Below are positions 10,546-62,971 of a stretch of DNA of 64,000 nt, in pieces (the stretch's first letter is position 1; every line of letters starts with the position of its first letter). The stretch spans positions 33,746-97,745 of the forward strand of contig JAZRIB010000005.1 of assembly GCA_045645065.1 (NCBI GenBank), read 5' to 3'. A program made the translations under genes and the position numbers. The notes below the pieces were generated by a model. The model made no database searches. It was not told the DNA's origin and was given only the letters and a program-made list of their open reading frames with translations. This DNA comes from Candidatus Enterousia sp. (lineage in GTDB: Bacteria > Pseudomonadota > Alphaproteobacteria > Rs-D84).

Positions 10546-10621
10546 GGGGCTATAGCTCAGTTGGTAGAGCAAATGACTTTTAATCATTGGGTCCAGGGTT
10601 CGAGTCCCTGTGGCCCCACCA
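10546..10621 (+). tRNA. tRNA-Lys (anticodon TTT)
   Basis: Cloverleaf: acceptor GGGGCTA/TGGCCCC, anticodon loop CTTTTAA, T-arm CAGGGTTCGAGTCCCTG, encoded CCA. A terminator hairpin CCGCGGA-TTT-CCGCGG plus T-run follows at 10622-10655. Confidence 0.85.
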
Positions 10622-31965: not shown

Positions 31966-31998
31966 GAAATTAACCGGCCTTGTGCCGGTTTAATTGTT

Positions 31999-32157
31999 GG
32001 CTATGCGGCGACGGAATTGAACCCGGCCAAGAGGGTTCGGGGCGCCAGTTGACGAGAACAAGTGAATACGAAGTTCGAGTCTTACGTAGCGAAAGGGGCC
32101 CATGGAGTGAAAACGAACATGGGAATCAGACATTCCCTTCGCCCGCACCAGAAATTA
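31999..32157 (+). repeat. tRNA-linked repeat element, copy G (~150 nt), ending in an exact 26-nt copy (32132-32157) of the tRNA-Gly 3' end plus 7 nt (first copy 31947-31972), followed by its own terminator
   Basis: ATTCCCTTCGCCCGCACCAGAAATTA occurs twice, 26/26 identical. The internal sequence is homologous to elements at 36868-36992 and 60166-60292. Confidence 0.6.
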
Positions 32158-32180
32158 AGCCGACCAATTATGGTCGGCTT

Positions 32181-32609
32181 TTATCTTGATTTGCCTGAAT
32201 TGCGTTTTAAGTTTTTATACGGATCTTTTTTGTGTTTCTTGTTTGTTTCGTCTGGGCGTTTTTTATAGACAGCTTTTATTTGTACCGTGAACACAGTGTT
32301 TTTTATTTCATCACAAATGTCGTATGTGTAATCAGTTTTATAAAGCGTATTTTCTTTCTTTTCGTTGTTGCACGTCTTGTGCATAGGTTGCAGATTTGAT
32401 ATATCGTCGTCGCCACCTTCGGATTTCGGAATAATATGATCCCATGTAAAATCTTTGATGTTATAAATAGGTTCATCGCACCATGGACAGCGTGGGGGTT
32501 GACCGCTGGCAATTAACAGGGCATAAATCTTTTTCAAGTGTTTGCGTGTTAACTGTTTTGGTTCTTGTTCCAGTGTCGTCAGCAACGCCAATAAGTCTTT
32601 CTTTTTCAT
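32181..32609 (-). CDS. HNH endonuclease
   Basis: CPWCDEPI...DHIIPKSEGGDDDISNLQPMHKTCNNEK is a canonical HNH motif. Confidence 0.8.
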   Translation of the reverse strand: MKKKDLLALLTTLEQEPKQLTRKHLKKIYALLIASGQPPRCPWCDEPIYNIKDFTWDHIIPKSEGGDDDISNLQPMHKTCNNEKKENTLYKTDYTYDICDEIKNTVFTVQIKAVYKKRPDETNKKHKKDPYKNLKRNSGKSR

Positions 32610-36107: not shown

Positions 36108-36656
36108 TTATCGTTTAGGGATAATGTTATTTTGAATATGCATAATCAATTTTAGCATATTTTTATCTGGATAACGATTAATAATTTCATCTGTGTTATT
36201 TTGAATTTCTTGGTTGGCAACCCTAAAAACATCTCCCATCGTCATTTGTTGCACGATTTCGATACGCTGTGCGCCACATTGGTACAGCTTGTTTTTATCA
36301 ATGCAACGTTGTTTATAAACTTGCGTCAGCGGATTAATTTCAAAAAAATAAACTTCTTGGTATGGTGATGTCAGCCCCATCCCAACATAGTACCACATAA
36401 GCATGTCAATAGTATTATCGGAAAAATGAATCACAGGCAGATGTGTTTGCAAAGACACTCTTGGATGCGCGGCTCCTGATTTAGAATACCACTGACACCA
36501 TTCATAAGGTTTTCCTTTTGCAGTAAATTGGCGTCCTGGATAAATATCTTCAATCTCAGATATGTAAAACTCGTCCATAAAACGAGAGTTCTGGACCGAT
36601 ACCATCTTAAAAAATCGTTTGTTTTCTTGCTGTTTCATAAAAAAGATGGTATACAA
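36108..36656 (-). CDS. Hypothetical protein, member of a local two-gene paralog family (182 aa)
   Basis: Clear similarity to the ORF at 37064-37591 (PGRQF.AK.K, VPV.HF.DN.iDmLMWY, W.CG...IEIV, EII.RYP). Confidence 0.45.
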   Translation of the reverse strand: MYTIFFMKQQENKRFFKMVSVQNSRFMDEFYISEIEDIYPGRQFTAKGKPYEWCQWYSKSGAAHPRVSLQTHLPVIHFSDNTIDMLMWYYVGMGLTSPYQEVYFFEINPLTQVYKQRCIDKNKLYQCGAQRIEIVQQMTMGDVFRVANQEIQNNTDEIINRYPDKNMLKLIMHIQNNIIPKR

Positions 36657-36832: not shown

Positions 36833-36867
36833 TAAAAATTCAACCCACCTTTTGGTGGGTTTAATTT

Positions 36868-37021
36868 TTATAAAGGAAAGTTGGACGAGAACCGTCAAGG
36901 TTCGATACGGAGTAGATTTGGCAAACGTAGTACAGCCAAATCGTCACGAGTGGAGAGGGGTATCCCCGCCCACTGTGTGGGCAGGGGAGTCCAGTCCTAT
37001 ACGCTCCGCCATAAAAATTCA
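36868..37021 (+). repeat. tRNA-linked repeat element, copy A (~125 nt), plus an exact 29-nt copy (36993-37021) of the tRNA-Ser(GCT) 3' end (first copy 36814-36842); possibly a degenerate pseudo-tRNA-Ser
   Basis: AGTCCTATACGCTCCGCCATAAAAATTCA is duplicated 29/29. The internal sequence GGTTCGATACGGAGTAGATTTGGCAAACGTAGTACAGCCAAATCGT is homologous to copy B at 60190-60240. Confidence 0.6.
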
Positions 37022-37063
37022 CCCCACCGCAAGGTAGGGTTAATTTTTTTGTCTCAGAATTAT

Positions 37064-37591
37064 TTACTTTGTTGCCTGGTTTTTTATTTTTGCACAATAT
37101 GCAATCATATCATAGTGTGGATATCGTGCGATTATTTCTGTGGGGTTTTGTGCTATTTCTTTGCATGCGTCTTGTGCCACCTGGGCCAGTGTGGTTTCCC
37201 TGACTATTTCAATTTTATTACATCCACATTGCCACAGTCTTGTTTCATCTGGAACGCGATTTTTATACACTTTCCCATGTGGTTTTATTTCAAAAAAATG
37301 TATTGTTTTTTCTGTGTCCTCAAAGAAATCCATAACTTCCCAATACCACATCAGTATATCAAGTGCGTTATCGCAAAAATGAAACACAGGCACCGATGCC
37401 AATACGCCAAAACGTTTGTAGGTATCTTTGAATTTTGCAACAAACTGACGTCCGGGTGTATATTCTTTGAAATCAGTAATGTTAAATGCTGCGCTTAAAC
37501 CATCTATAATGAATGGGTCGCGCCACATCATTTTATATGACTTGGTCATCAATGGTTTTTGTGTATCTATAGTATTCTTAGATTGTGTCAT
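37064..37591 (-). CDS. Hypothetical protein, paralog of 36108-36656 (175 aa)
   Basis: See the paralog entry above. Confidence 0.45.
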   Translation of the reverse strand: MTQSKNTIDTQKPLMTKSYKMMWRDPFIIDGLSAAFNITDFKEYTPGRQFVAKFKDTYKRFGVLASVPVFHFCDNALDILMWYWEVMDFFEDTEKTIHFFEIKPHGKVYKNRVPDETRLWQCGCNKIEIVRETTLAQVAQDACKEIAQNPTEIIARYPHYDMIAYCAKIKNQATK

Positions 37592-46389: not shown

Positions 46390-49300
46390 ATGAAGGGATT
46401 TAAGTTGCTTTTTGCGCTGTGCCTTGCGTTGCCTGGGATTGGTGGTGCGTGGGGTGCTGAATCAGACGACGCTGTCCGCGCCGCTACACGTCGTGGTGCA
46501 ACAAATACTGTTACATCCAGTCGTCAAAAATCAAACACGCCAACCGCCGCCCAGAACACTGGTTCGATTGCCCGTATTACAAATGTAAATGACACATCGG
46601 GTACAAATGCCCGCGAACGTGCGGTATCATCGCGTGGCATTTCAAATGTTTCGCGTTCGGTTGTTGTGCCATCGGATAAATCTGTGTCATCACGTACTGC
46701 AACAAATGGTGTATCACGTCCATCGGTTGCGACGCGCGCATCAACAACGGGGTCTGGGGGGCGTTCATCTGTGGCGGGTCGTGTGGCGCGTACGGCGACG
46801 ACTGCATCTGCGACGCGTTCTGGGAACACGTCGACTGGCACGACGCGTCGCGCATCTGTATCACGTGGCGCGATTATTTCCGACACGGTTCAGTCAATGC
46901 GTGATGCGATTATGAATTCCAACGCGACAGAATGTCGTAATGTTTATTACCAGTGTATGGATGAATTTTGTGCCAACAAAGACAGCCAACTAAAACGTTG
47001 TGCATGTTCATCACGTCTGCATGAATTTGACAGCGTGAAAAAGCAACTTGAAACAGTCGAAGACAAAATGTTGGATTTTTCCCAACGTCTTTTGACGGTC
47101 AGTATGGATGCCGAAGATGCAGCGGCATTAAACATCGCCACCGAAGGGGAATTGGCGTTCAATAAAAAAGACACATCCCAGTCAAAAAAAATATTGGATG
47201 AAATAACCAAAAAATTAAATACAAAATTTGATGATGAATCATTTGATCGCAATTTAACTGCGATATCATTGTCGCTTAACGAAGACGCCGCATTTGATAA
47301 TGTAGATTCATTGATGGGTGCGTCAACAACATTAAAAACAGGCACAGCGTTATACAGTGCGGCATTACCTGTGTGTCGTCAAATGGCCTCAGAAGTATGC
47401 ACCCCTGACCAGTTATCCATTGCCGAAAGTGGTTATCAAATGATGATTGAACAGGATTGTAACACTGTGAAAAAATCATATCAAACACAAACAGACACCG
47501 CCCGTGCCAAGGTTCTTGAAAACAGTGCCTTGCTGGATATGTCCCGCCTTAGCACACACCAAGACAGAAATTCTGACGATATCTTAACATGCAAACGCAA
47601 AATGCTTGATATGTTAAGTGACACATCAATTTGTGGTGATGATTTGACCAAATGTCTGGACATGACTGGGCAATACATTGATCCGCTAACAGGGCAAGCA
47701 TTTTTAACCACAAACCTTGCAAATCTTAGCCAACTTATCACGCGTCCTGGTGCGAATGAAACATGGTCTGGGGTACCGGGCAACGAACCGTTTGTTCGTC
47801 ATCTGAATTCTAAAAAGAAATTTTTAGAACCTGCAATGGCGCATTGTGAAAATATTGCGGATTCTGTTTGGGACGGTTTTGTCGAAGATGCCTTGGCGCA
47901 AATCAAACTGGCCCAAGATGCCAAACTAGAAACCGTTCGTCAATCATGTACAACCTTAACGGCCCAGTGTTTATCAGACGCAACAAAAACATTGGCTGAT
48001 TTTGATGCACGCGCATTATCAACATTTGGCGTTATCGCTGACAAAACCGTTGGCGCGATGTGTGCAGATGTGAAAAACGCGTGCAGTGCGCTTATGAAGG
48101 GAACAACCAGTGACCGCGACGACAGTTGGACAGGCGGTATAACCGAAATCGCAGACGATCAAACATACGATACGATTATCAAAACCTGTCGAGAAGTTGG
48201 ACGCAACTGTATCATCCAGGCATGTAAATCTACGTCTGGTAATTTTGGTTTATGTGAAGATATTGAAAATTCCGTTAATCGCCAGTCGATTATTAACGGT
48301 ACCGCCTGTTGGCAAGAAGTTTTGGATTGTGTTGCCACCGCAGACAGTAACGCCATTGATCGTATTATGGAAAATCTGCTTGATCGTGAAATTGTAAATT
48401 CCTGGAAATTTCATCGACAAGTATGGTCTGGCACTTATAATGAAAATTCATTAATTACTCCGTTATATTCTTTCTATAATAATTTATACTTTAAAAGAGG
48501 TACTAGCACATATTGGCCATCAAGTGTTAGCAATTCTTCAACTTGCATATCAAAAGATAAGAATTGCGTATATGATTTATGTGTCGGCAAAGGTGAATGT
48601 AAACCAATTAATGCATCTGACGTAGAACAAAATATCAATACAAGATGCAAACGTTGTCGTATTGCCGAACGTATCTGGGGTAATTGTGAGGTTGAACCAC
48701 ATACTCCTTTAACACTAAAACAAGATCCGAATAATACAATTATACCGCATAATAAAATTAAAAAAACAATAAATGGTGATGATACATTGTTATATTGGTT
48801 TGCATTAAATACTGGTACCGAAGATGCAAACAATTCATGTGTGGATACATCATGTGGACCGGGGTATCGTAAGTATACAAACACGGACTTAGGCATAGAA
48901 GATATGTGTGTCAGCGAAGATAAGTTTACCATAGACGGCAAATTCTGTATGTCAACATCAACAGGTGAGGATTCCGAAACAGGTGAGGCTGCCGAACCCA
49001 CTACCGATGCAACTCTAGATGCGTTGACGCCTTTTAGTGTAGCCGCTGGGCAAGCCAACTGTTGTACAGAAGGCATACTGGATGCATGGGGTAATTGTTG
49101 CAGTAATTCTGTTACTGTGTCATACGATGCGGGTGATTCAAACATATATGGTAGCGTCGTCAATACTATTGAAAACGCCAAAGTATGCGTGCCAAATGAA
49201 AATGCGGAATACGTATTAACGTTTGCCGTTGATCATACTGCTGATACTGCTAAGTATTACACTGGTGATCAATACGCTTTGATATGCATAGGTACATTGA

Positions 49301-49626
49301 ATACAGATGGCGAAAACATAGAATGTGTCGGAACATACCTGATTGTAGATATTAATAATGGTCGTTATTATTATCCAGATTATGATGAACCAATCCCAGG
49401 ATTTAATATGTCATACATAATTGATAACGGAAAACTAAAATGTCAATATGAATATACTGAAAATAACGACAACACGTACTCGTGGAAGTGGGTTGCATAT
49501 ACCAGAACTAACATAAATACCGAAAACTGGAGCTTAGCCCCCACCAGAAATACTGAATGTAAGTCTGTATTTAATGCTACTAATACTGACGGTGACCCTT
49601 CGTATCAATACAATATATCTTTTTAA
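46390..49626 (+). CDS. Large secreted Cys-rich protein, paralog B (1078 aa)
   Basis: Signal peptide. A ~150 aa Ser/Thr/Arg/Asn/Gly low-complexity region. A Cys-rich region whose first block (ECRNVYYQCMDEFCANKDSQLKRCACSSRLHEFDSVKKQLE) aligns with the 19977 gene. More than 60 Cys. Confidence 0.6.
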   Translation: MKGFKLLFALCLALPGIGGAWGAESDDAVRAATRRGATNTVTSSRQKSNTPTAAQNTGSIARITNVNDTSGTNARERAVSSRGISNVSRSVVVPSDKSVSSRTATNGVSRPSVATRASTTGSGGRSSVAGRVARTATTASATRSGNTSTGTTRRASVSRGAIISDTVQSMRDAIMNSNATECRNVYYQCMDEFCANKDSQLKRCACSSRLHEFDSVKKQLETVEDKMLDFSQRLLTVSMDAEDAAALNIATEGELAFNKKDTSQSKKILDEITKKLNTKFDDESFDRNLTAISLSLNEDAAFDNVDSLMGASTTLKTGTALYSAALPVCRQMASEVCTPDQLSIAESGYQMMIEQDCNTVKKSYQTQTDTARAKVLENSALLDMSRLSTHQDRNSDDILTCKRKMLDMLSDTSICGDDLTKCLDMTGQYIDPLTGQAFLTTNLANLSQLITRPGANETWSGVPGNEPFVRHLNSKKKFLEPAMAHCENIADSVWDGFVEDALAQIKLAQDAKLETVRQSCTTLTAQCLSDATKTLADFDARALSTFGVIADKTVGAMCADVKNACSALMKGTTSDRDDSWTGGITEIADDQTYDTIIKTCREVGRNCIIQACKSTSGNFGLCEDIENSVNRQSIINGTACWQEVLDCVATADSNAIDRIMENLLDREIVNSWKFHRQVWSGTYNENSLITPLYSFYNNLYFKRGTSTYWPSSVSNSSTCISKDKNCVYDLCVGKGECKPINASDVEQNINTRCKRCRIAERIWGNCEVEPHTPLTLKQDPNNTIIPHNKIKKTINGDDTLLYWFALNTGTEDANNSCVDTSCGPGYRKYTNTDLGIEDMCVSEDKFTIDGKFCMSTSTGEDSETGEAAEPTTDATLDALTPFSVAAGQANCCTEGILDAWGNCCSNSVTVSYDAGDSNIYGSVVNTIENAKVCVPNENAEYVLTFAVDHTADTAKYYTGDQYALICIGTLNTDGENIECVGTYLIVDINNGRYYYPDYDEPIPGFNMSYIIDNGKLKCQYEYTENNDNTYSWKWVAYTRTNINTENWSLAPTRNTECKSVFNATNTDGDPSYQYNISF

Positions 49627-53030: not shown

Positions 53031-54263
53031 TTAAGTGTTAAGGGTTCCAATAAACGTGTCACCAACAACATCTGTCAAAATTAAATCACAAATTGTACGT
53101 GGTGGGATATGTGCGCCGTCAATTTTTACAGAAATGTCGTGTGGACAACGTGCAATATTGTTTTCTTCAACTAACACTTGAACGTGTTGCCGCAACTGTT
53201 TTTGCATAAATTTAGCGCGATTTGTATTTGCAGCATCGTTTATTGTCTTAACTCGCTGTTTAGAAATGGCGCGATTCACTTGGTTTGGCATAGTCGCCGC
53301 CACAGTGTCAGGGCGGGGCGAATATGGAAAAGCATGAATTTTAATTGGCTTTAATTCGTGAACAAGATTCAGTGTTTCATTAAACAGTTCTTCTGATTCT
53401 CCTGGGAATCCACAGATTATATCCCAACTAAATGTAATATCATCGCCCGCCATTTGAACCCATTTACGAACTGTGTCTGCTGTGTGACGGCGACGCATTG
53501 CGCCCAGTATTGTATCTGAACCCGACTGCATTGAAAAATGCATATGTGGCATCATACGTTTATCAGATTTAATCAGTTCTATGATTTTTCCAACCTCACT
53601 CACCGCTGGGTCCATAGACGACAGACGCAGTCTTTGTATCCCCGGCACGTCGGCCAATAACTTTTTGCACAAATCAGAAATCATAAAAGCCTTGCCATCA
53701 TCAAGACGTGCGTATGATGCAATATCTACGCCGGTCAGAACGATTTCGCCAAAACCGTTATTTACCGCCGTGCGTACATCTGCCAAGATTTCGTCATATT
53801 CAAATGAAACCGCGCGTCCACGCAACAGGCGTGTCACACAGTACGTACAATCGTGATTGCACCCATTTTGAATCTGAATAAACTTTTTAGATAATTTTTC
53901 ATCTGTATCACGGAAATTATCTATGCGGGCATGCCCAACGATGTTACATGGTGTGCGTTCCATTGCATCTGTGTACGCGTTAATATTTCTTTTTTGGAAA
54001 TTATCTATCACTATTACGTTTGGTATATCACAAAACAATGCCGGGTTACGAGTTGCCGCACATCCCGTCACAAAAATAGGGGTGTTTGGATTTTCGCGTG
54101 CGGTACGGCGAACGAATTGTCCAGATTGACGTTCTGCTTCACCGGTCACTGCGCATGTATTGACTACAATTGCTGTATCAACAACGGCTGCCAACATATT
54201 TTGAATCTTTTCAGATTCTAATGCATTCAATCGACATCCAAAAGATAGTGTTTTTATACTCAT
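53031..54263 (-). CDS. Radical-SAM methylthiotransferase, MtaB/MiaB-like (tRNA ms2t6A/ms2i6A)
   Basis: N-terminal MTTase domain (FGCRLN), CNHDCTYC radical-SAM motif, C-terminal TRAM region. At 410 aa it is closer to MtaB than MiaB. Confidence 0.8.
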   Translation of the reverse strand: MSIKTLSFGCRLNALESEKIQNMLAAVVDTAIVVNTCAVTGEAERQSGQFVRRTARENPNTPIFVTGCAATRNPALFCDIPNVIVIDNFQKRNINAYTDAMERTPCNIVGHARIDNFRDTDEKLSKKFIQIQNGCNHDCTYCVTRLLRGRAVSFEYDEILADVRTAVNNGFGEIVLTGVDIASYARLDDGKAFMISDLCKKLLADVPGIQRLRLSSMDPAVSEVGKIIELIKSDKRMMPHMHFSMQSGSDTILGAMRRRHTADTVRKWVQMAGDDITFSWDIICGFPGESEELFNETLNLVHELKPIKIHAFPYSPRPDTVAATMPNQVNRAISKQRVKTINDAANTNRAKFMQKQLRQHVQVLVEENNIARCPHDISVKIDGAHIPPRTICDLILTDVVGDTFIGTLNT

Positions 54264-54339
54264 TGTTGTTCAATTATACTTCTGTCTAAAACAAATTCAA
54301 GTCCCCATATGTTATTAAAAATCCCCTGACGGGGGATTT

Positions 54340-54807
54340 TTATCTTTGCTTAGAATCGATATTTGCATATTTATACTTGGCGCGTTTTCTGCACTCTTCT
54401 TTCAGGGTCTGTTCATGTCTCAGAATTAATCTTGAATACTCTTTTAATGTTGGTTGTTTTCCATAAATTGGTTTGTATATAAGGCTTGCGCTATCAACAG
54501 GTTGTTGCCGCCATGTCAGTTTTTCCACCATGTTCAGTTCATTACGTATACGATAAAAGTCTTCAACGTACAATGTGTGACTTTTAATACTGGCCTTAAT
54601 ATCCTTGTCCTGAACCACGATTTGACGCTGTGGGTTTGGAACATTTTCAACTGGATTAAATTTTTCCAATTGAGGTGTGGCAAGTATTTGTCTGCCTACC
54701 AGATTCAGCCCCAGCACAGATGCTACAAAAATCAAAGCCGGACGAATGTTGTAATTACTATTTCTGCCCAGTCTGCGCTGCCAAATATCATTAGTGTTTT
54801 TTGTCAT
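54340..54807 (-). CDS. Hypothetical signal-anchored protein (155 aa)
   Basis: ORF only. Confidence 0.35.
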   Translation of the reverse strand: MTKNTNDIWQRRLGRNSNYNIRPALIFVASVLGLNLVGRQILATPQLEKFNPVENVPNPQRQIVVQDKDIKASIKSHTLYVEDFYRIRNELNMVEKLTWRQQPVDSASLIYKPIYGKQPTLKEYSRLILRHEQTLKEECRKRAKYKYANIDSKQR

Positions 54808-54984
54808 TTTTCGCCTTTTTCTTTATCGATACATAATTATTTTAGTGCAAAAATATATTTTGTCAATATTTTGTAAAAAATCAAAGCATTAATTTTTTTA
54901 GAAATTTTTATTTTTCTGCTTGCATTTTTGCTATCTATAAGGCATTATAACCAGGCTAAAAATTATTTCAACAAAGGATATAAA

Positions 54985-55377
54985 ATGGCCCGTACAACAA
55001 ATTCAGACACATTACCATATGTAGAAAGCCGTTATGAACTGGGGATGTTGGCATCTCAACGCGTTCGTGATTTGAACGGTGGTGCGGAACCGGTTGTGGA
55101 AAAAAACAAAGATAAATTGACAGTTGTTGCATTGCGCGAAATTGCCAGTGGTAAATTGGATGTAAACGCTGTACGTCACGAATTTGTTCAGTCTTACAAA
55201 GAAGCACCTGCTGTTGCAGATGGTGAAGAATCTTTGGAAATCGGTACCGAAGATCCATTGTTGCGTGAAATTGATGCGGAATTGGAAAATGCGTTGACTG
55301 ATGATGCGCCAATTGCGGATGCAGGGGACGTTATGGACGAAGTAATGGCGGACGATGTCGCCATTGACGAAGAATAA
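54985..55377 (+). CDS. rpoZ: DNA-directed RNA polymerase omega subunit
   Basis: MARTT..D....ESRYELGMLASQRVRDL is the typical RpoZ N-terminus. Start set at the internal ATG (54985). Acidic C-terminal tail. Confidence 0.85.
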   Translation: MARTTNSDTLPYVESRYELGMLASQRVRDLNGGAEPVVEKNKDKLTVVALREIASGKLDVNAVRHEFVQSYKEAPAVADGEESLEIGTEDPLLREIDAELENALTDDAPIADAGDVMDEVMADDVAIDEE

Positions 55378-55392
55378 CAAGGTCAAAGACTC

Positions 55393-55483
55393 GGAGTCGT
55401 CGCATAGTTGGTCTAGTGCGCTACATTGGAAATGTAGTATACTCGCAAGGGTATCAAGGGTTCGAATCCCTTCGACTCCGCCA
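55393..55483 (+). tRNA. tRNA-Ser (anticodon GGA)
   Basis: Acceptor GGAGTCG/CGACTCC, anticodon stem-loop CTACA-TTGGAAA-TGTAG, long variable arm, T-arm AAGGGTTCGAATCCCTT, CCA. Confidence 0.8.
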
Positions 55484-55522
55484 CAAAAATCAAACGCCCA
55501 AATTGGGCGTTTTATTTTTGTG
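55477..55522 (+). repeat. Direct repeat DR1 (attL-like): last 7 nt of tRNA-Ser(GGA) plus its terminator hairpin
   Basis: TCCGCCACAAAAATCAAACGCCCAAATTGGGCGTTTTATTTTTGTG. A near-identical copy lies at 60118-60165. Confidence 0.6.
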
Positions 55523-55649
55523 TTGACAGTTAAGAAAAAGCATATTAACATTAGTAGCGTGACTTGTGATAATTAATATTATCATAAGCATTGTCCACTA
55601 ATGTGGATAGATATAAATAGGGTTCATCGCCCAAAACTCAAAGGAGTTA

Positions 55650-56624
55650 ATGATGAAAAAAATTTACGACGATCCCAATGTCGTTATATACTCAAAAACT
55701 GAAACAGATCCCGTCTTTCAAGAAATAAAAACCTCTGATGGCAAACTTTTTAATACGCCAAAACCAACGATTTATGACCTGGGAATTGGGCTGGGGGCTG
55801 CGGAATTGATGTTTATAAACCCAAATACCGGCGAATGGCTACATGGTGGCGATGGTGAAATTATACCAATAAGCAAAAAGTCGAATAAAGTTGTGTTTAA
55901 CGAAAAAGTCTGGTCGTTAAGTGGTTTGGCGACGCATTTGCAAAGTAAATACCCCGAATCTAAATGTTCGGATGCCCAAGTGTATGATTTTTTTGCCTAC
56001 GTATATGAAGGTCGTACATTGGCAAAGATGGAGCGTGAGTTTTTGGAAAAATACTATAACATTTCCATACAAAGGGGGCGTTTTGAATTGTTGGCAGAAC
56101 AAAGGTATTTAGCAGAACAAAAACAATACGACGCAAATGATTTACATAACGATGTATATAAAATCGTAGATTGGCAAAACGATGATTTGACATCTGTAAA
56201 AGGGTTTAAATGGACTATAGATGGTACAAAATTTGCTGGCGAAACACGAAAGTTTAAAGAAATGTTCAAGCAAATCATTTCTTGTTTATATAATCATGCT
56301 CCACAGGTTTTGGATGTTGAGATGATACGCATCTTGTCGAACTCCGACGCATTATTTAATCCTACAATTAAAAAAATTATTAGTGTTTCTGGTGAAGTAC
56401 CTGTGGTAAATGGTAATATTGGTGGGTTAGAAGTTTCAAATATGCCAAATAATCATAGACATATTGATACGTATACCGATAGCATGTGGATAGAGGTGGT
56501 GTCTGGCTGGCTTTACATTTGGGGGCTATATTCCAATAATGATTTAAAAAAGAAGCTACAAGCGCTATTAAAGTTATACGGAATAGAGCCGAATAAGCTT
56601 ACAATATCAATTCAAGAACGCTAA
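55650..56624 (+). CDS. Hypothetical protein (324 aa), first gene of the candidate island
   Basis: ORF with a GGAG RBS. No family recognised. Confidence 0.45.
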   Translation: MMKKIYDDPNVVIYSKTETDPVFQEIKTSDGKLFNTPKPTIYDLGIGLGAAELMFINPNTGEWLHGGDGEIIPISKKSNKVVFNEKVWSLSGLATHLQSKYPESKCSDAQVYDFFAYVYEGRTLAKMEREFLEKYYNISIQRGRFELLAEQRYLAEQKQYDANDLHNDVYKIVDWQNDDLTSVKGFKWTIDGTKFAGETRKFKEMFKQIISCLYNHAPQVLDVEMIRILSNSDALFNPTIKKIISVSGEVPVVNGNIGGLEVSNMPNNHRHIDTYTDSMWIEVVSGWLYIWGLYSNNDLKKKLQALLKLYGIEPNKLTISIQER

Positions 56625-56655
56625 AATAAAAGACATCGCTATTTGGCGATGTTTT

Positions 56656-57714
56656 TTATTTGTGCAAAGTGTAAAACACGCCACGGGTTGTGCCTTGCTT
56701 TGATATGTGTCCCCGTTTAACCAACGCTTGTACCGCCTTGCGAATGGTTTCTGGATTTTTATCCATCGCAGATACAATCTGTGGCATGGTCAATTCTGGT
56801 GTTTTATGAAACAGTTCCAAAATCTGATTCTGTGTTGCAGACAGTTTTGCAACACTTGCACCACGTGCCTTTGCGATTTTGTCTTCCAGTTGGCGTTTTT
56901 GTGCAACCAATGCCCGAACAAAGAAAGTCAGCCATGGTTCATAGTTGATCTTGTCGCCCCAGATGGTTTTTTGCGTGCCACGTAATGCACGATAGTATGC
57001 GTCCTTGGTCGCTTCTATAATAGACTCCATAGATGCATATGGCATATATGTATATCCACTTTTCAGCATCAGCATAACAGTCAATGCACGCGACAAACGC
57101 CCATTACCATCGGTAAATGGATGGATGGACAGAAAATGTATCACAAACACCCCAATAGCAATAATAGGGTGAAAGAATTTGTCGGCCAACGCATCATTGG
57201 TCCATTTTACTGTTTCACTCATCAGGCGTGGCGTATCAAATGGTGTAGCGGTTTCGAATATAGAACCGATTTCATTACCGTTTGCGTCAAATGCAGCGAC
57301 ACGGTTGCCGTCTTTTTTATATTCGCCACGATGGCGGGTGTCCTTGTCAGAGTAATTCAATAATATTTTATGCAACTGCTTAATATAATTCTCACTAAGC
57401 GGTATAGACGCATAGTTTTCAAATATGGTATTGATTACATCTGAATATCCGGCAACTTCCTGCTCGTCTCTGGTGGCAAATGACTGACGATTGATATTGG
57501 CAAATAATGCCTCAATTTCAGTATCTGTCATACGATTGCCTTCTATACGATTAGATGACCCAACAGATTCAATTGTTGCAACACGACGCATAACACGCAG
57601 ATCATCTGCGGACAGTTTTACTGCCCCGCCAGTCCACGCACCATTAAATGCATCAATCTCGGCAATGCCGTTCAGCATTTCTGGGGTTATAATAATATCT
57701 CGATTATTAGGCAT
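56656..57714 (-). CDS. Fic-family protein (class II, N-terminal inhibitory SxxxEG motif) with C-terminal winged-helix domain
   Basis: Fic motif HPFTDGNGRLSRAL. Inhibitory-helix motif SNRIEG lies upstream in the same polypeptide. C-terminal HTH-like region (KNPETIRKAVQALVKRGHISKQGTTRGVFY). Confidence 0.85.
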   Translation of the reverse strand: MPNNRDIIITPEMLNGIAEIDAFNGAWTGGAVKLSADDLRVMRRVATIESVGSSNRIEGNRMTDTEIEALFANINRQSFATRDEQEVAGYSDVINTIFENYASIPLSENYIKQLHKILLNYSDKDTRHRGEYKKDGNRVAAFDANGNEIGSIFETATPFDTPRLMSETVKWTNDALADKFFHPIIAIGVFVIHFLSIHPFTDGNGRLSRALTVMLMLKSGYTYMPYASMESIIEATKDAYYRALRGTQKTIWGDKINYEPWLTFFVRALVAQKRQLEDKIAKARGASVAKLSATQNQILELFHKTPELTMPQIVSAMDKNPETIRKAVQALVKRGHISKQGTTRGVFYTLHK

Positions 57715-57809
57715 ACCAAATCCTTTTTATGTTTTACCAGATTTTACCAGATGATTCCCAGAAAGTCAATATTTTTCCCAGATAGCACATCGGCTTTATT
57801 GCGATATAA

Positions 57810-58487
57810 TCATTCTTCTATGTTGGAATATGATATGGCTTCATCTATTTTGTCCATCAACAAGCTAGCAAAAATCAATCGCTTTATAGCCATGTCCTTC
57901 GATATGATCTGATTTTCGTGTGCCTTGGGGTTTCTTATGCCTGTCATTGCGCCAGCAAATATGTTCATATATCCAATTTGGACATCTTTGCCAGTCTGTG
58001 TTTCTATGTTCTCAAAAGTTAACAGTGGGTTATTAGGCGAAAATACATGATTCATTAGGGCACTACCGTCTAGTTCCTCATTTCGAAATTTGCGATATAA
58101 CTTCTTTAATCTAGAGTTAATTTCCTTGAATGCAGACTCTACACAATCGGCATATTGTTGTGCTAGGAATTTGGGTTGTATAATTGGCAACAATAAGGGG
58201 TGAATACACTTCCAGAAAGGTTCGTCCCGAGCCTGTAAAATATGACGTCGTAAAAGCTCTAGATTTTTTGATATAATGCCAGCTTCTGGTAGTGTCATAT
58301 ATTCCGTTGCTGTATACAATAAATTGTCGGATATTTTCTTCCAATACATAGTGTCTTCCAGGTGGTTTTCATAGATAAAATCCGTAAGACTCCTATGGAA
58401 ACTGACGTATTCTGGGGTATTAAATCTGAACTTTCCCTTATAATCATGCAGTTTATAAAATTCGTTTATAATATCATCAATATTCAT
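57810..58487 (-). CDS. Hypoth_ymh/TIGR02391-like protein (abortive-infection-associated domain family)
   Basis: C-terminal FAGAMTGIRNPKAHENQIISKDMAIKRLIFASLLMDKID matches the conserved GxRNxxAH core of this family. Confidence 0.5.
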   Translation of the reverse strand: MNIDDIINEFYKLHDYKGKFRFNTPEYVSFHRSLTDFIYENHLEDTMYWKKISDNLLYTATEYMTLPEAGIISKNLELLRRHILQARDEPFWKCIHPLLLPIIQPKFLAQQYADCVESAFKEINSRLKKLYRKFRNEELDGSALMNHVFSPNNPLLTFENIETQTGKDVQIGYMNIFAGAMTGIRNPKAHENQIISKDMAIKRLIFASLLMDKIDEAISYSNIEE

Positions 58488-58815
58488 GTCTATTTATCCT
58501 TTATTCTTGTATATAGGATTTTATATGAAAAATACAAGAGTTTTATAGTGGGAAAATCCCTGTAAATTCCTTGTAAAAATGGAATTTGTATATGGTTGTT
58601 CGTGATAAAATCATACTCCGCCAGTATTCGGGCATGTATGCCGATACAGATAAAAAGCCCGCTCTCTAGCGGGATTTTTCATGCATTGACTCTGGTATGG
58701 ACGAAAACAGCCCATTTTTAGGCGGTGAAATACGGTTTTCTATACAACGCCCTTTTTTCGATAGTCAATGGTAAAAAAACAAAACTTGCACTTCTGCAAG
58801 TTTGTTATTTAACGG

Positions 58816-60024
58816 TTATTTTTTGTCATTGGTGTATTTTCCAATTTGGATATATATGAATGTCGCGATAATCCTTAATACCGCCAATATTATAAGAAGA
58901 TACGGTAATATGTTATATCCACCAAACATACCAACATACATCAATGCAATAGTTCCGCCCCATCTTCCAATAAAAGACATAACCTGGCGCGCGGCAAGGT
59001 ATTCTGCGCGATATGATTGTGTTACTAATTTTGTTTTTGCAAGGTTTAATATATTAACCGAAGACACTTGATCCATCGTCGCAACACCTAATGATACAGC
59101 ACCTGCATATACCAATGTGCTAAATCTGTTAAGTTCAGACATAAGGTATATTATCGATCCGATTAGTAATATTGAACAAAGTCCTACGACCCATTTAAAA
59201 TCTCGATTTGAACAAAAACGTCCAAACAACCACATAGCCATTGCAGTAAGAAGCGCAAAGAATGTTGTCCATGCACCCAAAGTTATATCTGTGTGAAAAA
59301 TATAAACAATGTACAATATTCCCACACTTTCTAATTCATATGCAAGCCCCCGCAAGAATTCTGCTAAAAATAATTTCCTCATACATAGTATCTTCACTGA
59401 TTTATGCATAAAACCGACCAGATCAGCCGATTTTTTAGCATAATTTTGTACAGGCGGCATTATAAATAGTAAATAACATTCAATTACTCCCATAAATACT
59501 AAAAGCCATGCTATATTTTGCAACGAACCTATCGTTATCAACACCCCTAATGTAATCGGGAGCAGAATTTTTACAATATTTGTTATCGCGACATCGGTTC
59601 CATAGAAAAACATCATACGGCATGCAGATACTTTATCTATCACCATTTGCTGTTGTGCCATACTGTATAATGCATGTTGTATACCATACAACATCCCTAA
59701 AATCATAATCCAATTGGCGGCATGAACACCTAACAATGCAATCAAAATTACCAGAATAAGTTGCACAACTATGTGTGATCCAAAAACAACCTTGATATTA
59801 CCATGCTTACATCGGTTTATCATCAAAACAAATGAAGCCATAATGGCAAAATAAAAAAATAAGTCATATATAGATACTGATATAAATTCATTAATTGAAT
59901 TACGTATCAAAAAAGATACAACAAATGTCCCTAAAAATAATTGTGAAATACCACGAAACACAGAAAAACTGATTAATATCCATTCTGTTTTATTTAGTTT
60001 ATACGTGATATCTTTCTCTCTCAT
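58816..60024 (-). CDS. Polytopic membrane protein, MFS-like permease (402 aa)
   Basis: About 12 hydrophobic helices. Terminator at 58778-58812 on the minus strand. Confidence 0.5.
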   Translation of the reverse strand: MREKDITYKLNKTEWILISFSVFRGISQLFLGTFVVSFLIRNSINEFISVSIYDLFFYFAIMASFVLMINRCKHGNIKVVFGSHIVVQLILVILIALLGVHAANWIMILGMLYGIQHALYSMAQQQMVIDKVSACRMMFFYGTDVAITNIVKILLPITLGVLITIGSLQNIAWLLVFMGVIECYLLFIMPPVQNYAKKSADLVGFMHKSVKILCMRKLFLAEFLRGLAYELESVGILYIVYIFHTDITLGAWTTFFALLTAMAMWLFGRFCSNRDFKWVVGLCSILLIGSIIYLMSELNRFSTLVYAGAVSLGVATMDQVSSVNILNLAKTKLVTQSYRAEYLAARQVMSFIGRWGGTIALMYVGMFGGYNILPYLLIILAVLRIIATFIYIQIGKYTNDKK

Positions 60025-60117
60025 GGTATGAGAAAAATATCATATATAAAAATTTAAAACAATAAAAAACTTATTTAGGTATACCAAATTGTGCAATAGA
60101 ATTTTAGTCCGCCAGAA

Positions 60118-60165
60118 ATAATCAAACGCCCCATTGTGGGCGTTTTATTTTTGTGCCGAAATCGG
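60118..60165 (+). repeat. Direct repeat DR2 (attR-like copy of tRNA-Ser(GGA) 3' end plus terminator)
   Basis: TCCGCCAGAAATAATCAAACGCCCCATTGTGGGCGTTTTATTTTTGTG versus DR1, about 42/46 identical with a 2-nt indel. Confidence 0.6.
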
Positions 60166-60340
60166 GGTTCGAACCCGGTAAAGCCACGATAGTGGCGTGG
60201 GTTCGACAAAGAGTAGGTTTTGCAAACATAGTACGGCAAAACCGTTAGGAATGCCCCACAGCACCGCCGTCCGCGGGGCGAGGGAATACTTCGCCCCCGC
60301 CAGGATAATAAAAACACCCCACAAAATACTTGTGGGGGTT
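60166..60340 (+). repeat. tRNA-linked repeat element, copy B (~127 nt), followed by a third degenerate copy of the CCGCCA-N-AAATAAT-hairpin-T-run motif (60286-60340)
   Basis: GGTTCGACAAAGAGTAGGTTTTGCAAACATAGTACGGCAAAACCGT is homologous to copy A. GGGGTTCGAACCCGGTAAAG is homologous to copy G (GGAATTGAACCCGGCCAAG). It ends ...TTCGCCCCCGCCAGGATAATAAAAACACCCC-hairpin. Confidence 0.55.
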
Positions 60341-60361
60341 GATTTTTATTCTTGGGCGGGA

Positions 60362-62971
60362 CTATTGTGCTGATTCCAGCTGACCCAAGGTTATATCACA
60401 CACAGACAATTCATCTGCAACGGTATAAGATGCTGCGTCTGTGGTCAGATTTCCAACATTAACCAAGTCTTCTTGACCCTGTTTGATTACATCAATGATG
60501 CGGGCAGGCGCCTTAATCTGAATGTTTGTAACAGGTGTTTTCAGACTAACATTAGCGTTGGTTTTTTCTTTTCTGATTTCACTGCTTATGACACTTAATG
60601 CATCATACAGTTCGGTATCGTCTGATATAATGTTTGCAAATTCATCCATATTTGGCCATGGTTCCAAATGGATTGTTTTGCCGTTTGTCCAACTGCATGC
60701 TTGATATATTTCTTCTGTAACAAATGGACAGAATGGTGCAAACAACTTAATAAACGTATCCAGTGTAAACATCAACGCGTTGACCGCAGATTTATTTTCG
60801 GAATTATACGCGCGTCCTTTTACTATTTCCAGATAGTTATTACAGAAATCCCAAAAAGCTTTTTCGATAATATCTAACGCTTGGGCATAATCGTTTTGTG
60901 CAAAACTCTTACTCGCGCCTTTTACTGCATCAGACAATCTTTTTAACCAAGATTTATCAGTTGCTTCTGTGATATTTGTTTTATAGTCATCGTCAATATT
61001 AATCTTAGAATTTTCAACGATGTTCATAACGAACTTGCTAGCATTAAAGATTTTTGTAACTAATTTTTTGCCTTGTTCCATTATTTGTTCTTCAAATATC
61101 GCGTCCGCCCCCAGTTTTGAACGTGCCGCCCAGTAACGAACCGCATCCGAAGAATGTTTTACAATCAAATTCATTGGTGTAATAACATTCCCTTTGGATT
61201 TGCTCATTTTCTTGCGGTCTGGATCCATAATAAATCCACTGATAAAACAGCGTTTCCATGGGATAGTATTTTCATGCAATAACGCCTTGGCTATTGTGTA
61301 AAACGCCCATGTTCTGATAATGTCGTGTGATTGCGGTCTGACATCAAATGGTAACGACAAATTTGTCTTGTCAGAAGCACAATTGATTGCAATTTGTGGT
61401 GTCAGCGAAGATGTCGCCCATGTATCCATAACGTCTTTGTCGCCAACAAAACCATTTTTTTGTCCGCGTTGACTTTCTGTATAGCCTGCTGGGGCGTCTG
61501 CCATTGGGTCTACGGGTAAATCTTTTTTGTCTGCGAAAATAGGGTGGTTATAGTCGACGTTGCCATTTTCGTCTATTGGATACCAAACAGGGAACGGAAC
61601 GCCAAAGAAACGTTGGCGACTGATACACCAGTCTTGATTTAATCCGCGTGTCCAGTTTTCATATCTGCTGTGCATGTGTGATGGGAACCAATCGATTTTA
61701 TTGCCCGCTTCAATCATGCGTTCTTTTTCGTCCATCAAATTAACAAACCATTGTCTGGATGATACGAATTCCAGTGGCAAATTACCTTTTTCATAGAACT
61801 TAACAGGGTGCACGATTTCTTTCAAATCGCCTTTCAAAGAACCGTCCGCACGCAACATTTCTACTATTTTGTCTTGGGCGTCTTTGATTGTCAGGCCTGC
61901 AATTTGATTAAAATTACGCTGTGCTTTTTCTTTGTTTAATGTAACAAATGCGCCTTCGCCATATTCAATGTTTGCGATTTTGCCATCTTTGTTAATGATT
62001 TGTTTGATTGGCAACCCAGACTGCTTCCACCATTGAACGTCTGTGATGTCGCCAAATGTGCAAACCATCATTATACCCGTACCTTTGTCCATTTCTGCAT
62101 TTTCAGATGCAACAATCGGAACAGGAATATCGAACAGTGGTGTAATTGCGCGTTTGCCAAAGAATTTTTTATATCTTTCGTCTGCTGGATTTGCGACGAT
62201 TGCAATACATGCCGGCAATAACACAGGACGTGTAGTTGCAATTATAAATGTGTCATCTTCGCCTTCTATTTTGAATTCGATATCGTGGAAGTGTCCTTTG
62301 ACTTCACGGTCTTCGATTTCTGCTTGGGCGATTGCAGACTGGAATGTAATATCCCACATTGTTGGTGCTTCAACAGATTGTGCCTTGCCCGCGGCGACTA
62401 AATCCAAGAAAGATGCCTGGGATATTGCGATTGAATCTTTGCCAATAGTAGAATATTGCAAATCCCAATCATAAGAATTGCCGATTTGTTTGAATATTTC
62501 TTCAAAAATCTTTTCGTCTTCTTTTGTTAATATCTCGCATGCTTCGATAAAATTCTTTCTAGAAATTTCCGTACGTGGTGATTCATCGCCTGGGTTGTGA
62601 ACTGGCTTAAAATTTGGGTCGTATGGGATTTCTGGGTTGCATGCAATGTTATAATAGTTTTGTACGCGACGTTCCGTAGGCAACCCGTTATCGTCCCAAC
62701 CAATTGGAAAGAATATGTTTTTCCCAGACATTCTTTGGAAACGTGCGATAACGTCTGTTTGAACGTAACTGAATATATGACCGATATGCAAAGAACCAGA
62801 CACGGTTGGGGGTGGTGTATCAATCATATATGTTTCACCACGTGGTGTGTTCGGATTGTATTTATAAACCGCATTATCAGCCCAAAAATTAACGCATCTT
62901 TGTTCGATTTCTTCAAAGTTGAGTTTTTTATCTAAGCCTTTTTGTTCTTTGTATGTCATATCAAAATCCAT
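60362..62971 (-). CDS. valS: Valyl-tRNA synthetase (Rickettsia-like TPPPTVSGSLHIGH form)
   Basis: TPPPTVSGSLHIGH and KMSKSKGN motifs. 869 aa. Confidence 0.9.
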   Translation of the reverse strand: MDFDMTYKEQKGLDKKLNFEEIEQRCVNFWADNAVYKYNPNTPRGETYMIDTPPPTVSGSLHIGHIFSYVQTDVIARFQRMSGKNIFFPIGWDDNGLPTERRVQNYYNIACNPEIPYDPNFKPVHNPGDESPRTEISRKNFIEACEILTKEDEKIFEEIFKQIGNSYDWDLQYSTIGKDSIAISQASFLDLVAAGKAQSVEAPTMWDITFQSAIAQAEIEDREVKGHFHDIEFKIEGEDDTFIIATTRPVLLPACIAIVANPADERYKKFFGKRAITPLFDIPVPIVASENAEMDKGTGIMMVCTFGDITDVQWWKQSGLPIKQIINKDGKIANIEYGEGAFVTLNKEKAQRNFNQIAGLTIKDAQDKIVEMLRADGSLKGDLKEIVHPVKFYEKGNLPLEFVSSRQWFVNLMDEKERMIEAGNKIDWFPSHMHSRYENWTRGLNQDWCISRQRFFGVPFPVWYPIDENGNVDYNHPIFADKKDLPVDPMADAPAGYTESQRGQKNGFVGDKDVMDTWATSSLTPQIAINCASDKTNLSLPFDVRPQSHDIIRTWAFYTIAKALLHENTIPWKRCFISGFIMDPDRKKMSKSKGNVITPMNLIVKHSSDAVRYWAARSKLGADAIFEEQIMEQGKKLVTKIFNASKFVMNIVENSKINIDDDYKTNITEATDKSWLKRLSDAVKGASKSFAQNDYAQALDIIEKAFWDFCNNYLEIVKGRAYNSENKSAVNALMFTLDTFIKLFAPFCPFVTEEIYQACSWTNGKTIHLEPWPNMDEFANIISDDTELYDALSVISSEIRKEKTNANVSLKTPVTNIQIKAPARIIDVIKQGQEDLVNVGNLTTDAASYTVADELSVCDITLGQLESAQ

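Follow-up and report, generated by a model that had tools for sequence, protein, structure and literature searches.

Between tRNA-Ser(GGA) and valS, the 64,000-nt stretch of Candidatus Enterousia sp. contig JAZRIB010000005.1 analysed here (the window) appears to hold a variable hot spot in which units are arrayed head to tail, each ending in a copy of the ...CCGCCA terminus of the tRNA followed by an intrinsic terminator. Reading from the tRNA, the interval consists of unit 1, a 3,140-bp segment (55484–58623) flanked by a 9-bp direct repeat; unit 2; a module made of a terminator, a small element (B), a tRNA-end copy and a second terminator; and then valS (Table 1). We favour, with a probability of roughly 0.6, a history of serial site-specific insertions of integrase-less, largely defence-related cassettes recombined in trans, giving an array like those of cis-mobilizable elements (CIMEs) or of tycheposon remnants. 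An initial annotation of this sequence had drawn a single 4.6-kb island between two direct repeats (DR1 and DR2), with B between DR2 and a third repeat (DR3). That island is instead a composite of two units, split at 58615–58623, and its variable part is 3.14 kb.

The boundaries of unit 1 come from a strain that lacks it. L081, a 2.6-kb conspecific metagenome contig found through an exact match to RpoZ (labels of this kind denote related metagenome or genome contigs compared with the window), is 99.3% identical to window positions 53159–55483 (2,325 nt). Past the CCA of its tRNA it runs straight into window positions 58624–58897, at 94.7% identity. The stretch common to both alignments is exactly ACTCCGCCA, which puts the strain-variable unit at 55484–58623. 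Unit 2 is directly joined to the tRNA in L081, without the DR1 terminator, and the gene of unit 2, encoding a permease like those of the major facilitator superfamily (MFS), lies outside unit 1 and is retained in this strain. The initial annotation had proposed looking for an empty tRNA-Ser(GGA) site in a close relative, and L081, from which 55484–58623 is precisely absent, provides one. The copy of ACTCCGCCA at the right boundary of unit 1 had been overlooked: three tRNA-end copies were counted, and 58615–58623 is a fourth. This 9-mer occurs twice in the 64 kb, against 0.23 occurrences expected.

The left end of unit 1 recurs elsewhere. Segment 55484–56661, comprising the terminator, a promoter region that begins TTGACAGTTAAG and the gene of a 324-aa protein, is found again at 78–87% identity; TTGACAGTTAAG is the constant cassette start in all relatives, conserved in five other contexts, and the 324-aa gene is the first after the attachment-site (att) core in every context seen. 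What precedes the cassette varies. In the window it directly follows the true tRNA, in L174 the tRNA-like end of B, in L171 and L172 another small element, and in L168 and L173 the right ends of a Hachiman island and a radical-SAM island, respectively. Terminators related to that of DR1 precede it in L168, L171, L173 and L174. The L174 cassette continues after the 324-aa gene with a different Fic gene (23% identical), the same right end and core, and then Cas9–Cas1–Cas2. Since B is proximal to the 324-aa/Fic cassette in L174 and distal to it in the window, both the 3′ end of the tRNA and the tRNA-like 3′ end of the element evidently act as attachment points.

These comparisons leave hardly tenable the view that the genes are immobile and vertically inherited, with the repeats being convergent tRNA-type terminators. 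Several observations would suit that view: in several species the 324-aa gene is found close to rpoZ and tRNA-Ser(GGA) and is about as similar as housekeeping genes are; DR1, DR2 and DR3 all look like functional terminators; and composition is nearly native. When GC content and codon usage are set against the backbone, as the initial annotation had suggested, GC deviates only mildly (0.377 in unit 1 and 0.339 in the MFS unit, versus 0.411 in the window), and GC at third codon positions falls inside the core-gene range for three of the four island genes. Immobility is contradicted, however, by the precise absence of the unit from L081, by the inverted order of B and cassette between the window and L174, and by the position of the cassette behind unrelated islands in L168 and L173. 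An arrangement without variation across the lineage, which the initial annotation had named as a finding that would speak against its proposal, is thus contradicted by L081 and by the swapped order in L174; nor are the repeats convergent hairpins alone, as they also include the 3′ end of the tRNA.

At the other end of unit 1, a conserved right end occupies the 62–70 nt before the core and contains the 10-nt direct repeat TCCNTGTAAA twice, one helical turn apart, together with a 7-bp dyad. It is 84–93% identical in L001, L132, L154, L173 and L174, at the same position before ACTCCGCCA; in L085 its first ~45 nt are matched at 91%, and L168 shares the CCCTGTAA motif before its core, behind HamAB. 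Upstream of these shared right ends lies cargo unrelated to unit 1, namely a radical-SAM/ATP-grasp cluster, an Hsp70-like gene, and HamA with a DEAD helicase. Because a non-coding end is thus common to different cargoes, we consider the right end, with its two copies of TCCNTGTAAA and its dyad, a probable recombinase-binding arm. In L001, L085, L132 and L154 the right end and core abut a terminator and small element, and the junction of right end, core and terminator in L001, L085 and L132 fits attR and attP alike. A 21-nt motif of the right end, CCCTGTAAATTCCTTGTAAAA, is found exactly in nine IMG/VR viral contigs (L159–L167) that have near-identical flanks and an unrelated, non-tRNA context; this match is probably a coincidence.

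The repeats themselves are composite, as tRNA sequence makes up only 7–9 nt of DR1 and DR2 and the remainder is terminator. A module of tRNA end plus terminator marks each junction between cassettes in ~15 related loci from metagenomes or genomes, which came from a single metagenome scan with the 3′ half of the terminator as query; judged by the sequences compared, this recurrence is not chance. DR1 is indeed the 3′ end of tRNA-Ser(GGA), recognized by ARAGORN and the Rfam tRNA model, plus its terminator, and reads CCGCCA followed by CAAAAATCAAACGCCC-AAAT-TGGGCGTTTTATTTTTGTG, ending at 55522. A second copy does lie ~4.6 kb downstream and is identical at ~40 of 46 aligned positions (~87%), but it aligns at 60110–60155: DR2 as first placed, at 60118–60165, was shifted rightward by ~8–10 nt and entered element B. 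DR3 is the degenerate third copy that had been described, with a 13-nt tRNA-like end (TTCGCCCCCGCCA) identical to the tRNA end at 11 of 13 nt, followed by a terminator that differs from that of DR1 and DR2 and also terminates valS. DR2-type modules precede B-type elements in L001, L089, L133, L154, L156 and L174 as well. As a whole, the original observation is partly borne out.

Relatives suggest what the locus looked like before the cassettes arrived. In at least eight related loci, including L089, L117/L144, L134, L136 and L156 as well as L171 and L174, tRNA-Ser(GGA) is followed without any insertion by the same terminator, a small element of 123–167 nt, a tRNA-end copy and another terminator. 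Because relatives carry the same module directly after tRNA-Ser(GGA), DR2–B–DR3 is best read as a module that adjoined the tRNA early on, throughout the lineage, and was displaced distally here by later insertions. The initial annotation had cast B as a recurrent passenger at the distal end of the island; in L089, L156, L174 and others the element directly follows the tRNA.

The ancestral locus would have run tRNA, terminator, B, tRNA end, terminator and valS, as in relatives today. Cassettes would have entered serially at the 3′ end of the tRNA by site-specific recombination, each insertion bringing a replacement tRNA end and terminator and displacing older material distally. The right end of each cassette would serve as the recombinase-binding arm and, because no unit encodes a recombinase, the enzyme would act in trans, supplied by another part of the genome or by an element present only transiently. 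The parts of this history that we infer are that recombination was site-specific, the direction it took and the enzyme acting in trans. Of the earlier interpretation, repeated, nested and integrase-less insertion at one tRNA-3′-end att site stands, given L081 and the cassette's presence behind different cores; the extent of the unit and the role of B do not.

Homologous recombination is the main rival account, in which RecA-dependent exchange among dispersed copies of the tRNA end and terminator (with or without the small element) and the tRNA and valS flanks, after transformation, transfer by a gene transfer agent (GTA) or intragenomic exchange, would have gained, lost and reordered the units. 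The junction modules are 46–200 nt long, 80–94% identical and repeated within genomes (twice in the window and two to three times in L001, L134 and L154), L134 and L152 have a 2.7-kb insert between direct repeats of ~85 nt, and the lack of a recombinase in the window and the arrays scanned also agrees with such shuffling. The breakpoint between the window and L081, however, is a 9-bp repeat, too short for efficient RecA recombination, and all units join at ...CCGCCA irrespective of the terminator that follows. Nor does shuffling require a dedicated right end, with repeat and dyad, beside the core on unrelated cargo. As the explanation of the array we find it unlikely; homologous recombination certainly contributes to the rearrangements in L001 and L173.

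Serial site-specific insertion, the history we favour, has several points against it. The identity block is short (9–13 nt), the DR2 core AGTCCGCCA departs from the tRNA at one of its 9 positions, and chance alone makes 7-mers such as YCCGCCA frequent. The empty site is seen in only one contig, of 2.6 kb, and the polymorphism might have arisen by loss of the unit instead of its gain. Unit 2 and the downstream genes of L171 have no recognisable right end, and base composition is weakly atypical. The ~46-nt, ~87% identical junction modules could support homologous recombination, and large rearrangements are found around these repeats in L001 and L173, where even valS is placed between units. No integrase, excisionase or circular junction was seen anywhere, so that the cognate recombinase is wholly postulated.

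Searches for such an enzyme covered both the window and its relatives. The initial annotation reported no integrase in the island, and Pfam, NCBIfam and PADLOC profile searches of all four island open reading frames (ORFs) agree in detecting no recombinase; unit 1 is filled by its three ORFs and has no room for an integrase. Elsewhere in the window, no ORF of 140 aa or longer looked recombinase-like when the list was read by eye, and no tyrosine or serine recombinase was found in the arrays of L001, L085, L132 and L154 (Pfam) or L134 and L152 (reading). Related loci and viral scans yielded no integrative and conjugative element (ICE) or integrative and mobilizable element (IME) with a cognate integrase at the site. 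In scans of viral contigs no phage of this lineage with the right-end motif was found, and the 3′ end of the tRNA-Ser, used as a query, proved common among unrelated sequences and returned nothing from this lineage. As for an integron cassette array, there is no IntI, and the junctions are a tRNA end plus terminator, not attC.

A recombinase does occur at another tRNA. In L172, a 524-aa large serine recombinase with Resolvase and Recombinase domains (772–2381) abuts tRNA-Glu(TTC); L171 has the neighbouring genes of L172 and starts just short of the recombinase position. This element, at a different tRNA and with no link to the tRNA-Ser(GGA) site, shows that the lineage has such enzymes available in trans and is a candidate source of one.

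Unit 1 might also be the decayed remnant of one or more larger elements (prophage, ICE or IME) that once carried an integrase, the unit being the fixed, attR-proximal defence end of such an element and L081 reflecting another ancestral acquisition. Defence genes are typically located at the ends of prophages and satellites, which would suit this origin, as would the lineage's large-serine-recombinase element beside tRNA-Glu in L172 and the right end in L168, which follows HamAB a few kilobases from ParB-methylase, DUF5681 and terminase genes. The L168 terminase, however, gives no evidence of a prophage: the segment with the ParB-methylase, DUF5681 and Terminase_6C genes (L168/L169, 1–2751) is 83–87% identical on many chromosomal contigs of the lineage of at least 0.5 Mb, and we rejected this lineage-wide conserved chromosomal gene as a prophage marker. 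It may be domesticated and GTA-like. Six independent arrays contain no integrase fragment, unit 1 has an intact left end that also opens the cassette in five contexts, as would not be expected from random decay, and the viral-contig scans found no phage of the lineage bearing these ends. We regard a decayed remnant as distinctly unlikely.

Several known systems share parts of this organization. CIMEs, described among Streptococcus ICEs and IMEs, keep attL and attR, have lost integration and transfer genes and accrete at a shared site (PMC5704250). Like them, the units here are flanked by attL- and attR-like repeats of the target 3′ end, carry no integration or transfer genes and lie in tandem at one site. 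Unlike them, they have no cognate integrase-bearing ICE or IME that we could find, their att identity spans 9–13 nt, they are very small (1.5–3 kb) and their host is an uncultured gut alphaproteobacterium; the conserved ~70-nt right end and the adjoining structured small element are not CIME features. In Prochlorococcus, successive integrations of tycheposons at one tRNA push older elements inward and leave partial tRNAs (10.1101/2020.12.28.424599). The likeness extends to tRNA-anchored variable islands, serial integration, partial tRNAs and degenerate remnants, whereas what defines tycheposons is a tyrosine recombinase and replication modules of their own, and nothing of the kind was seen in ~100 kb of related arrays, and their cargo serves nutrient acquisition and not, as mainly here, defence. 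Tandem islands in Dehalococcoides are bounded by ssrA, the transfer-messenger RNA (tmRNA) gene, or its 20-bp 3′ repeat (PMC3146451). They resemble the present array in having extra conserved nucleotides just upstream of each repeat and in including integrase-less members, and differ in usually carrying a CcrB-like serine recombinase module by attL, where here a non-coding right end lies by attR.

As in defence islands, different systems occupy the same locus: SoFic-type and HEPN-like proteins here, and Cas9, Hachiman and WYL regulators in relatives. Unlike general defence hot spots, this one has an explicit repeat grammar of tRNA-end core, terminator and optional small element. In kind the island is familiar, a defence islet anchored at a tRNA and lacking an integrase, but its host is unusual, belonging to a little-known group of uncultured gut and rumen Alphaproteobacteria, and its grammar is unusually clear. 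Because that grammar (tRNA-end core, terminator and conserved right end) is explicit, cassette boundaries are predictable, and it could serve to mine new defence genes, such as that of the always-first 324-aa protein.

The gene content of the island is as the initial annotation had it: a Fic protein, a Hypoth_Ymh protein, the 324-aa protein and an MFS-like permease, according to Pfam, PADLOC and NCBIfam. Within unit 1 the order is its own terminator, the promoter, the 324-aa gene, SoFic, Ymh and the conserved right end. The Fic protein matches the PADLOC SoFic profile at 1.9e-48 over residues 41–348 and scores 53.9 bits against the NCBIfam SoFic equivalog NF046030, whose cut-off is 550; by these scores it is a relative of SoFic, not an equivalog. 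The Ymh protein matches the PADLOC profiles PD-Lambda-3_B (5e-11) and Aga_HEPN (9e-06), and from such profile matches unit 1 is a small candidate anti-phage cassette. At the same hot spot in relatives, defence-like cargo includes Cas9–Cas1–Cas2, HamA with a DEAD helicase (Hachiman), WYL/WCX and DUF2779. The 324-aa protein matches no Pfam, NCBIfam or PADLOC family; its homologues form 13 clusters, and the single source name given and all contexts looked up are metagenome-assembled genomes (MAGs) of Alphaproteobacteria. Its AlphaFold2 model is moderate (pLDDT 72, pTM 0.48), a Foldseek search of the PDB gave no match better than E = 0.67, and neither supports the idea of a hidden recombinase.

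The leader of unit 2 is found again in L154, after a right end and core. Beyond it, valyl-tRNA synthetase (ValRS) comparison places the window among MAGs of uncultured gut and rumen Alphaproteobacteria; the closest relative is L001, at 90% amino acid identity, and other MAG loci in the genome scan reach ~57–64%. L001, although the nearest genome in that scan, is rearranged relative to the window, and relatives at ~62% ValRS identity show no synteny at valS. Exact-protein look-ups of the 324-aa, Fic, Ymh, MFS and ValRS proteins returned no record, and conspecific contigs were found only via RpoZ. On the upstream side of valS, L001 (1–12720) and L173 (1–7823) bear a radical-SAM/ATP-grasp/amidotransferase cluster that ends in a right end and ACTCCGCCA; the cluster is possibly of the kind that makes ribosomally synthesized and post-translationally modified peptides. 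In L001, B is cut off by the 3′ end of valS, and the rearrangement breakpoints lie at the same repeats.

The family of small elements, ~125–165 nt long, is more interesting than the island: its cores are common to different tRNAs, and its members are conserved, covarying and without a known RNA family. Element B lies, as first described, between DR2 and DR3. Within it are the invariant GGGTTCGA motif, which copies the 5′ half of the T-arm, and a covarying hairpin (60217–60244); its fold has z = −3.7 relative to shuffles and its GC content is 0.585, against 0.41 for the window. B is 85–94% identical to orthologous copies, against 67–70% at synonymous third positions of the adjacent rpoZ, and conservation so far above neighbouring synonymous sites fits a function. 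Close relatives carry different core types at tRNA-Ser(GGA), and such switching, together with cores common to different tRNAs, fits mobility. For the suggestion in the initial annotation that B may be the minimal mobile unit, these two lines of evidence point in different directions.

Similar elements accompany other tRNAs. Among 81 surveyed tRNAs, 23 (~28%) have a copy of their own last 13 nt located 162–207 nt downstream, with an additional tandem copy at 348 nt in L117. The tRNAs concerned are Ser-GGA (10 of 13), Thr-GGT (7 of 13), Ser-TGA, Ser-CGA, Ser-GCT, Gly-CCC, Gly-GCC and Glu-TTC; the loci include L007, L008, L010, L013, L015, L016, L022 (tRNA-Thr), L027, L063, L142 and L147, and tandem arrays of elements occur in L117, L013 and L092. 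The common plan is tRNA, terminator, spacer, segment #1, loop, segment #2, core, tRNA copy from A58 to CCA, and second terminator. Segment #2 is the 5′ strand of the local tRNA's T-stem with the first half of the T-loop, and segment #1 is complementary to it, forming a hairpin upstream of the core that masks the T-stem. As segment #2 precedes the core and the ~19-nt copy from A58 to CCA follows it, the core interrupts a partial tRNA copy precisely at the step from position 57 to 58.

The cores fall into at least three types, B, Gly-type and type 3, each common to different tRNAs and with ends tailored to the local tRNA; in the DNA surveyed, core motifs occur in tRNA-linked contexts only, with no adjacent ORF. 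Fold z-scores of the small elements range from −2.3 to −4.7 on the plus strand and are weaker on the minus strand. In the B alignment, 4 of 26 pairs show compensatory changes, and for type 3 the figure is 8 of 19, from only four sequences; several G–U pairs work on the tRNA strand only. Rfam 15 gave no match at gathering score in the window, and nothing credible at E ≤ 1–10 for B, the type-2/Gly-type or type 3. Inside B, a promoter-like TCGACA-18-CATAGT (60203–60232) overlaps both the invariant GGGTTCGACA and the covarying hairpin's loop; a transcript from it, should it be real, would be ~65 nt long and end in a tRNA-like CCA.

Three readings of the small elements present themselves: T-loop-specific mobile elements that survive only in partial tRNA copies, in an IS200/IS605-like position; cargo-less, attP-only integrative units; and tRNA-linked structured RNA genes. 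For the first, we presume a likeness to non-autonomous IS200/IS605 derivatives (palindrome-associated transposable elements, PATEs) or to the omega RNAs and right-end element RNAs (reRNAs) of TnpB. As in these, a structured core of ~80–110 nt directly adjoins the end of a pentanucleotide (TTCGA or TCCGA of the T-loop) and brings no target duplication, and the core followed by ~19 nt of flank (tRNA A58 to CCA) resembles a scaffold with a 3′ guide, with covarying hairpins. The DNA surveyed contains no TnpA, TnpB or IscB gene and no full-length insertion sequence with these ends, and a PATE model leaves unexplained the intact tRNA upstream, the terminator and the complementary #1/#2 hairpin.

One further scenario would join the small elements to the cassettes. 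They would form an undescribed class of T-loop-targeting elements, whose scaffold-plus-guide RNAs, with a 3′ part that matches the tRNA gene, direct or mark the recombination that loads cassettes; the enzyme would be the always-adjacent 324-aa protein or an unseen factor in trans. If true, this would be an RNA-guided or RNA-assisted attachment-site system, although we hold it to be quite improbable. Whether mobile element, recombination site or RNA gene, the nature of the small elements would bear on the way in which tRNA hot spots take up cassettes that lack an integrase.

Other identities were considered and set aside. A tmRNA was found by neither ARAGORN nor Rfam; a tRNA-like molecule has no Rfam match, and by eye a closed acceptor stem is plausible for the Gly-type only; and the UGAYGA...GAAA motif is, by eye, non-canonical for a hammerhead and also has no Rfam match. 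The lack of a conserved ORF in the Ser(GCT) copy led us to reject a tag-peptide reading of GCAAAC... in B. An origin of the 19-nt copies by tRNA-primed reverse transcription is disfavoured, since the repeats at tRNA-Gly(CCC) and tRNA-Ser(GCT) run past the CCA into flank and terminator.

Table 1 Features of the tRNA-Ser(GGA)–valS interval and sister small elements in the window
Feature	Position	Strand	Details
tRNA-Ser(GGA)	55393–55483	+	Intact, CCA encoded; ARAGORN; Rfam tRNA 58.4 bits
att core copy 1, ACTCCGCCA	55475–55483	+	Last 9 nt of tRNA-Ser(GGA)
Left end of unit 1, bidirectional intrinsic terminator (terminator part of DR1)	55484–55522	+	Hairpin 55492–55512, 9-bp stem, T-run on both strands
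Promoter and operator region of the 324-aa gene	55523–55649	+	TTGACA-17-TAACAT (10/12 promoter match) and palindrome TGTGATAATTAATATTATCA
324-aa protein, no assigned family	55650–56624	+	
Fic-domain protein with C-terminal winged-helix domain, SoFic-type candidate anti-phage protein	56656–57714	-	Pfam Fic 2.5e-16
Hypoth_Ymh/TIGR02391 (HEPN-like) protein	57810–58487	-	Pfam 1.5e-25; TIGR02391 5e-17
Island right end, AAATCCCTGTAAATTCCTTGTAAAAATGGAATTTGTATATGG...ATCAT	58553–58614	+	Direct repeat TCCNTGTAAA twice; dyad AAATTCC/GGAATTT
att core copy 2, ACTCCGCCA, right boundary of unit 1	58615–58623	+	L081 breakpoints overlap by exactly these 9 nt
Unit 2	58624–60105	.	~145-nt leader with hairpin and terminator (58658–58673); second bidirectional terminator (58782–58803); MFS-like permease gene
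MFS-like permease gene	58816–60024	-	MFS_1 3.6e-08; 33.1 bits versus Pfam cut-off 33.4
DR2: att core copy 3 and bidirectional terminator	60106–60155	+	Degenerate core AGTCCGCCA (60106–60114); hairpin 60124–60145
Small element B	60156–60289 (60156–60302 including tRNA-like end)	+	Between DR2 and DR3; GC 0.585; highly structured
DR3: att core copy 4 and bidirectional terminator	60290–60345	+	Core TTCGCCCCCGCCA (60290–60302); terminator 60317–60337
valS (valyl-tRNA synthetase), right-hand chromosomal flank	60362–62971	-	ORF; 90% amino acid identity to L001
Sister element after tRNA-Gly(CCC)	31966–32158	+	Terminator, Gly-type core, 27-nt exact tRNA-end copy (32132–32158)
Sister element after tRNA-Ser(GCT)	36833–37048	+	Terminator, B-like core (46-nt motif 36899–36944), 59-nt 86% copy of tRNA end and terminator

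The surroundings of other tRNAs in the window hold further features. Directly after the tRNA-Gly(CCC) small element, a 142-aa ORF (32181–32609, minus strand) has an HNH-type motif, DHIIPKSEGGDDDISNLQPMHKTCNNEKK, read by eye, and may be hot-spot cargo. Two paralogous ORFs on the minus strand, of 182 aa (36108–36656) and 175 aa (37064–37591), flank tRNA-Ser(GCT) and its small element, and a 43-nt repeat is found around this region at 36307 and 37257. At 10546–11937, tRNA-Lys(TTT) and a terminator are followed by a 355-aa ORF with an N-terminal Cys-rich, HNH-like motif (CIFCG...NKEHVLPQW), which may be tRNA-adjacent cargo; no tRNA-end repeat of this tRNA occurs within 8 kb. Two large Cys-rich paralogues of 913 and 1,078 aa (19791–22532 and 46390–49626), probably secreted, share the motif Y(F/Y)xCMDxFCAxK...RCxCS.

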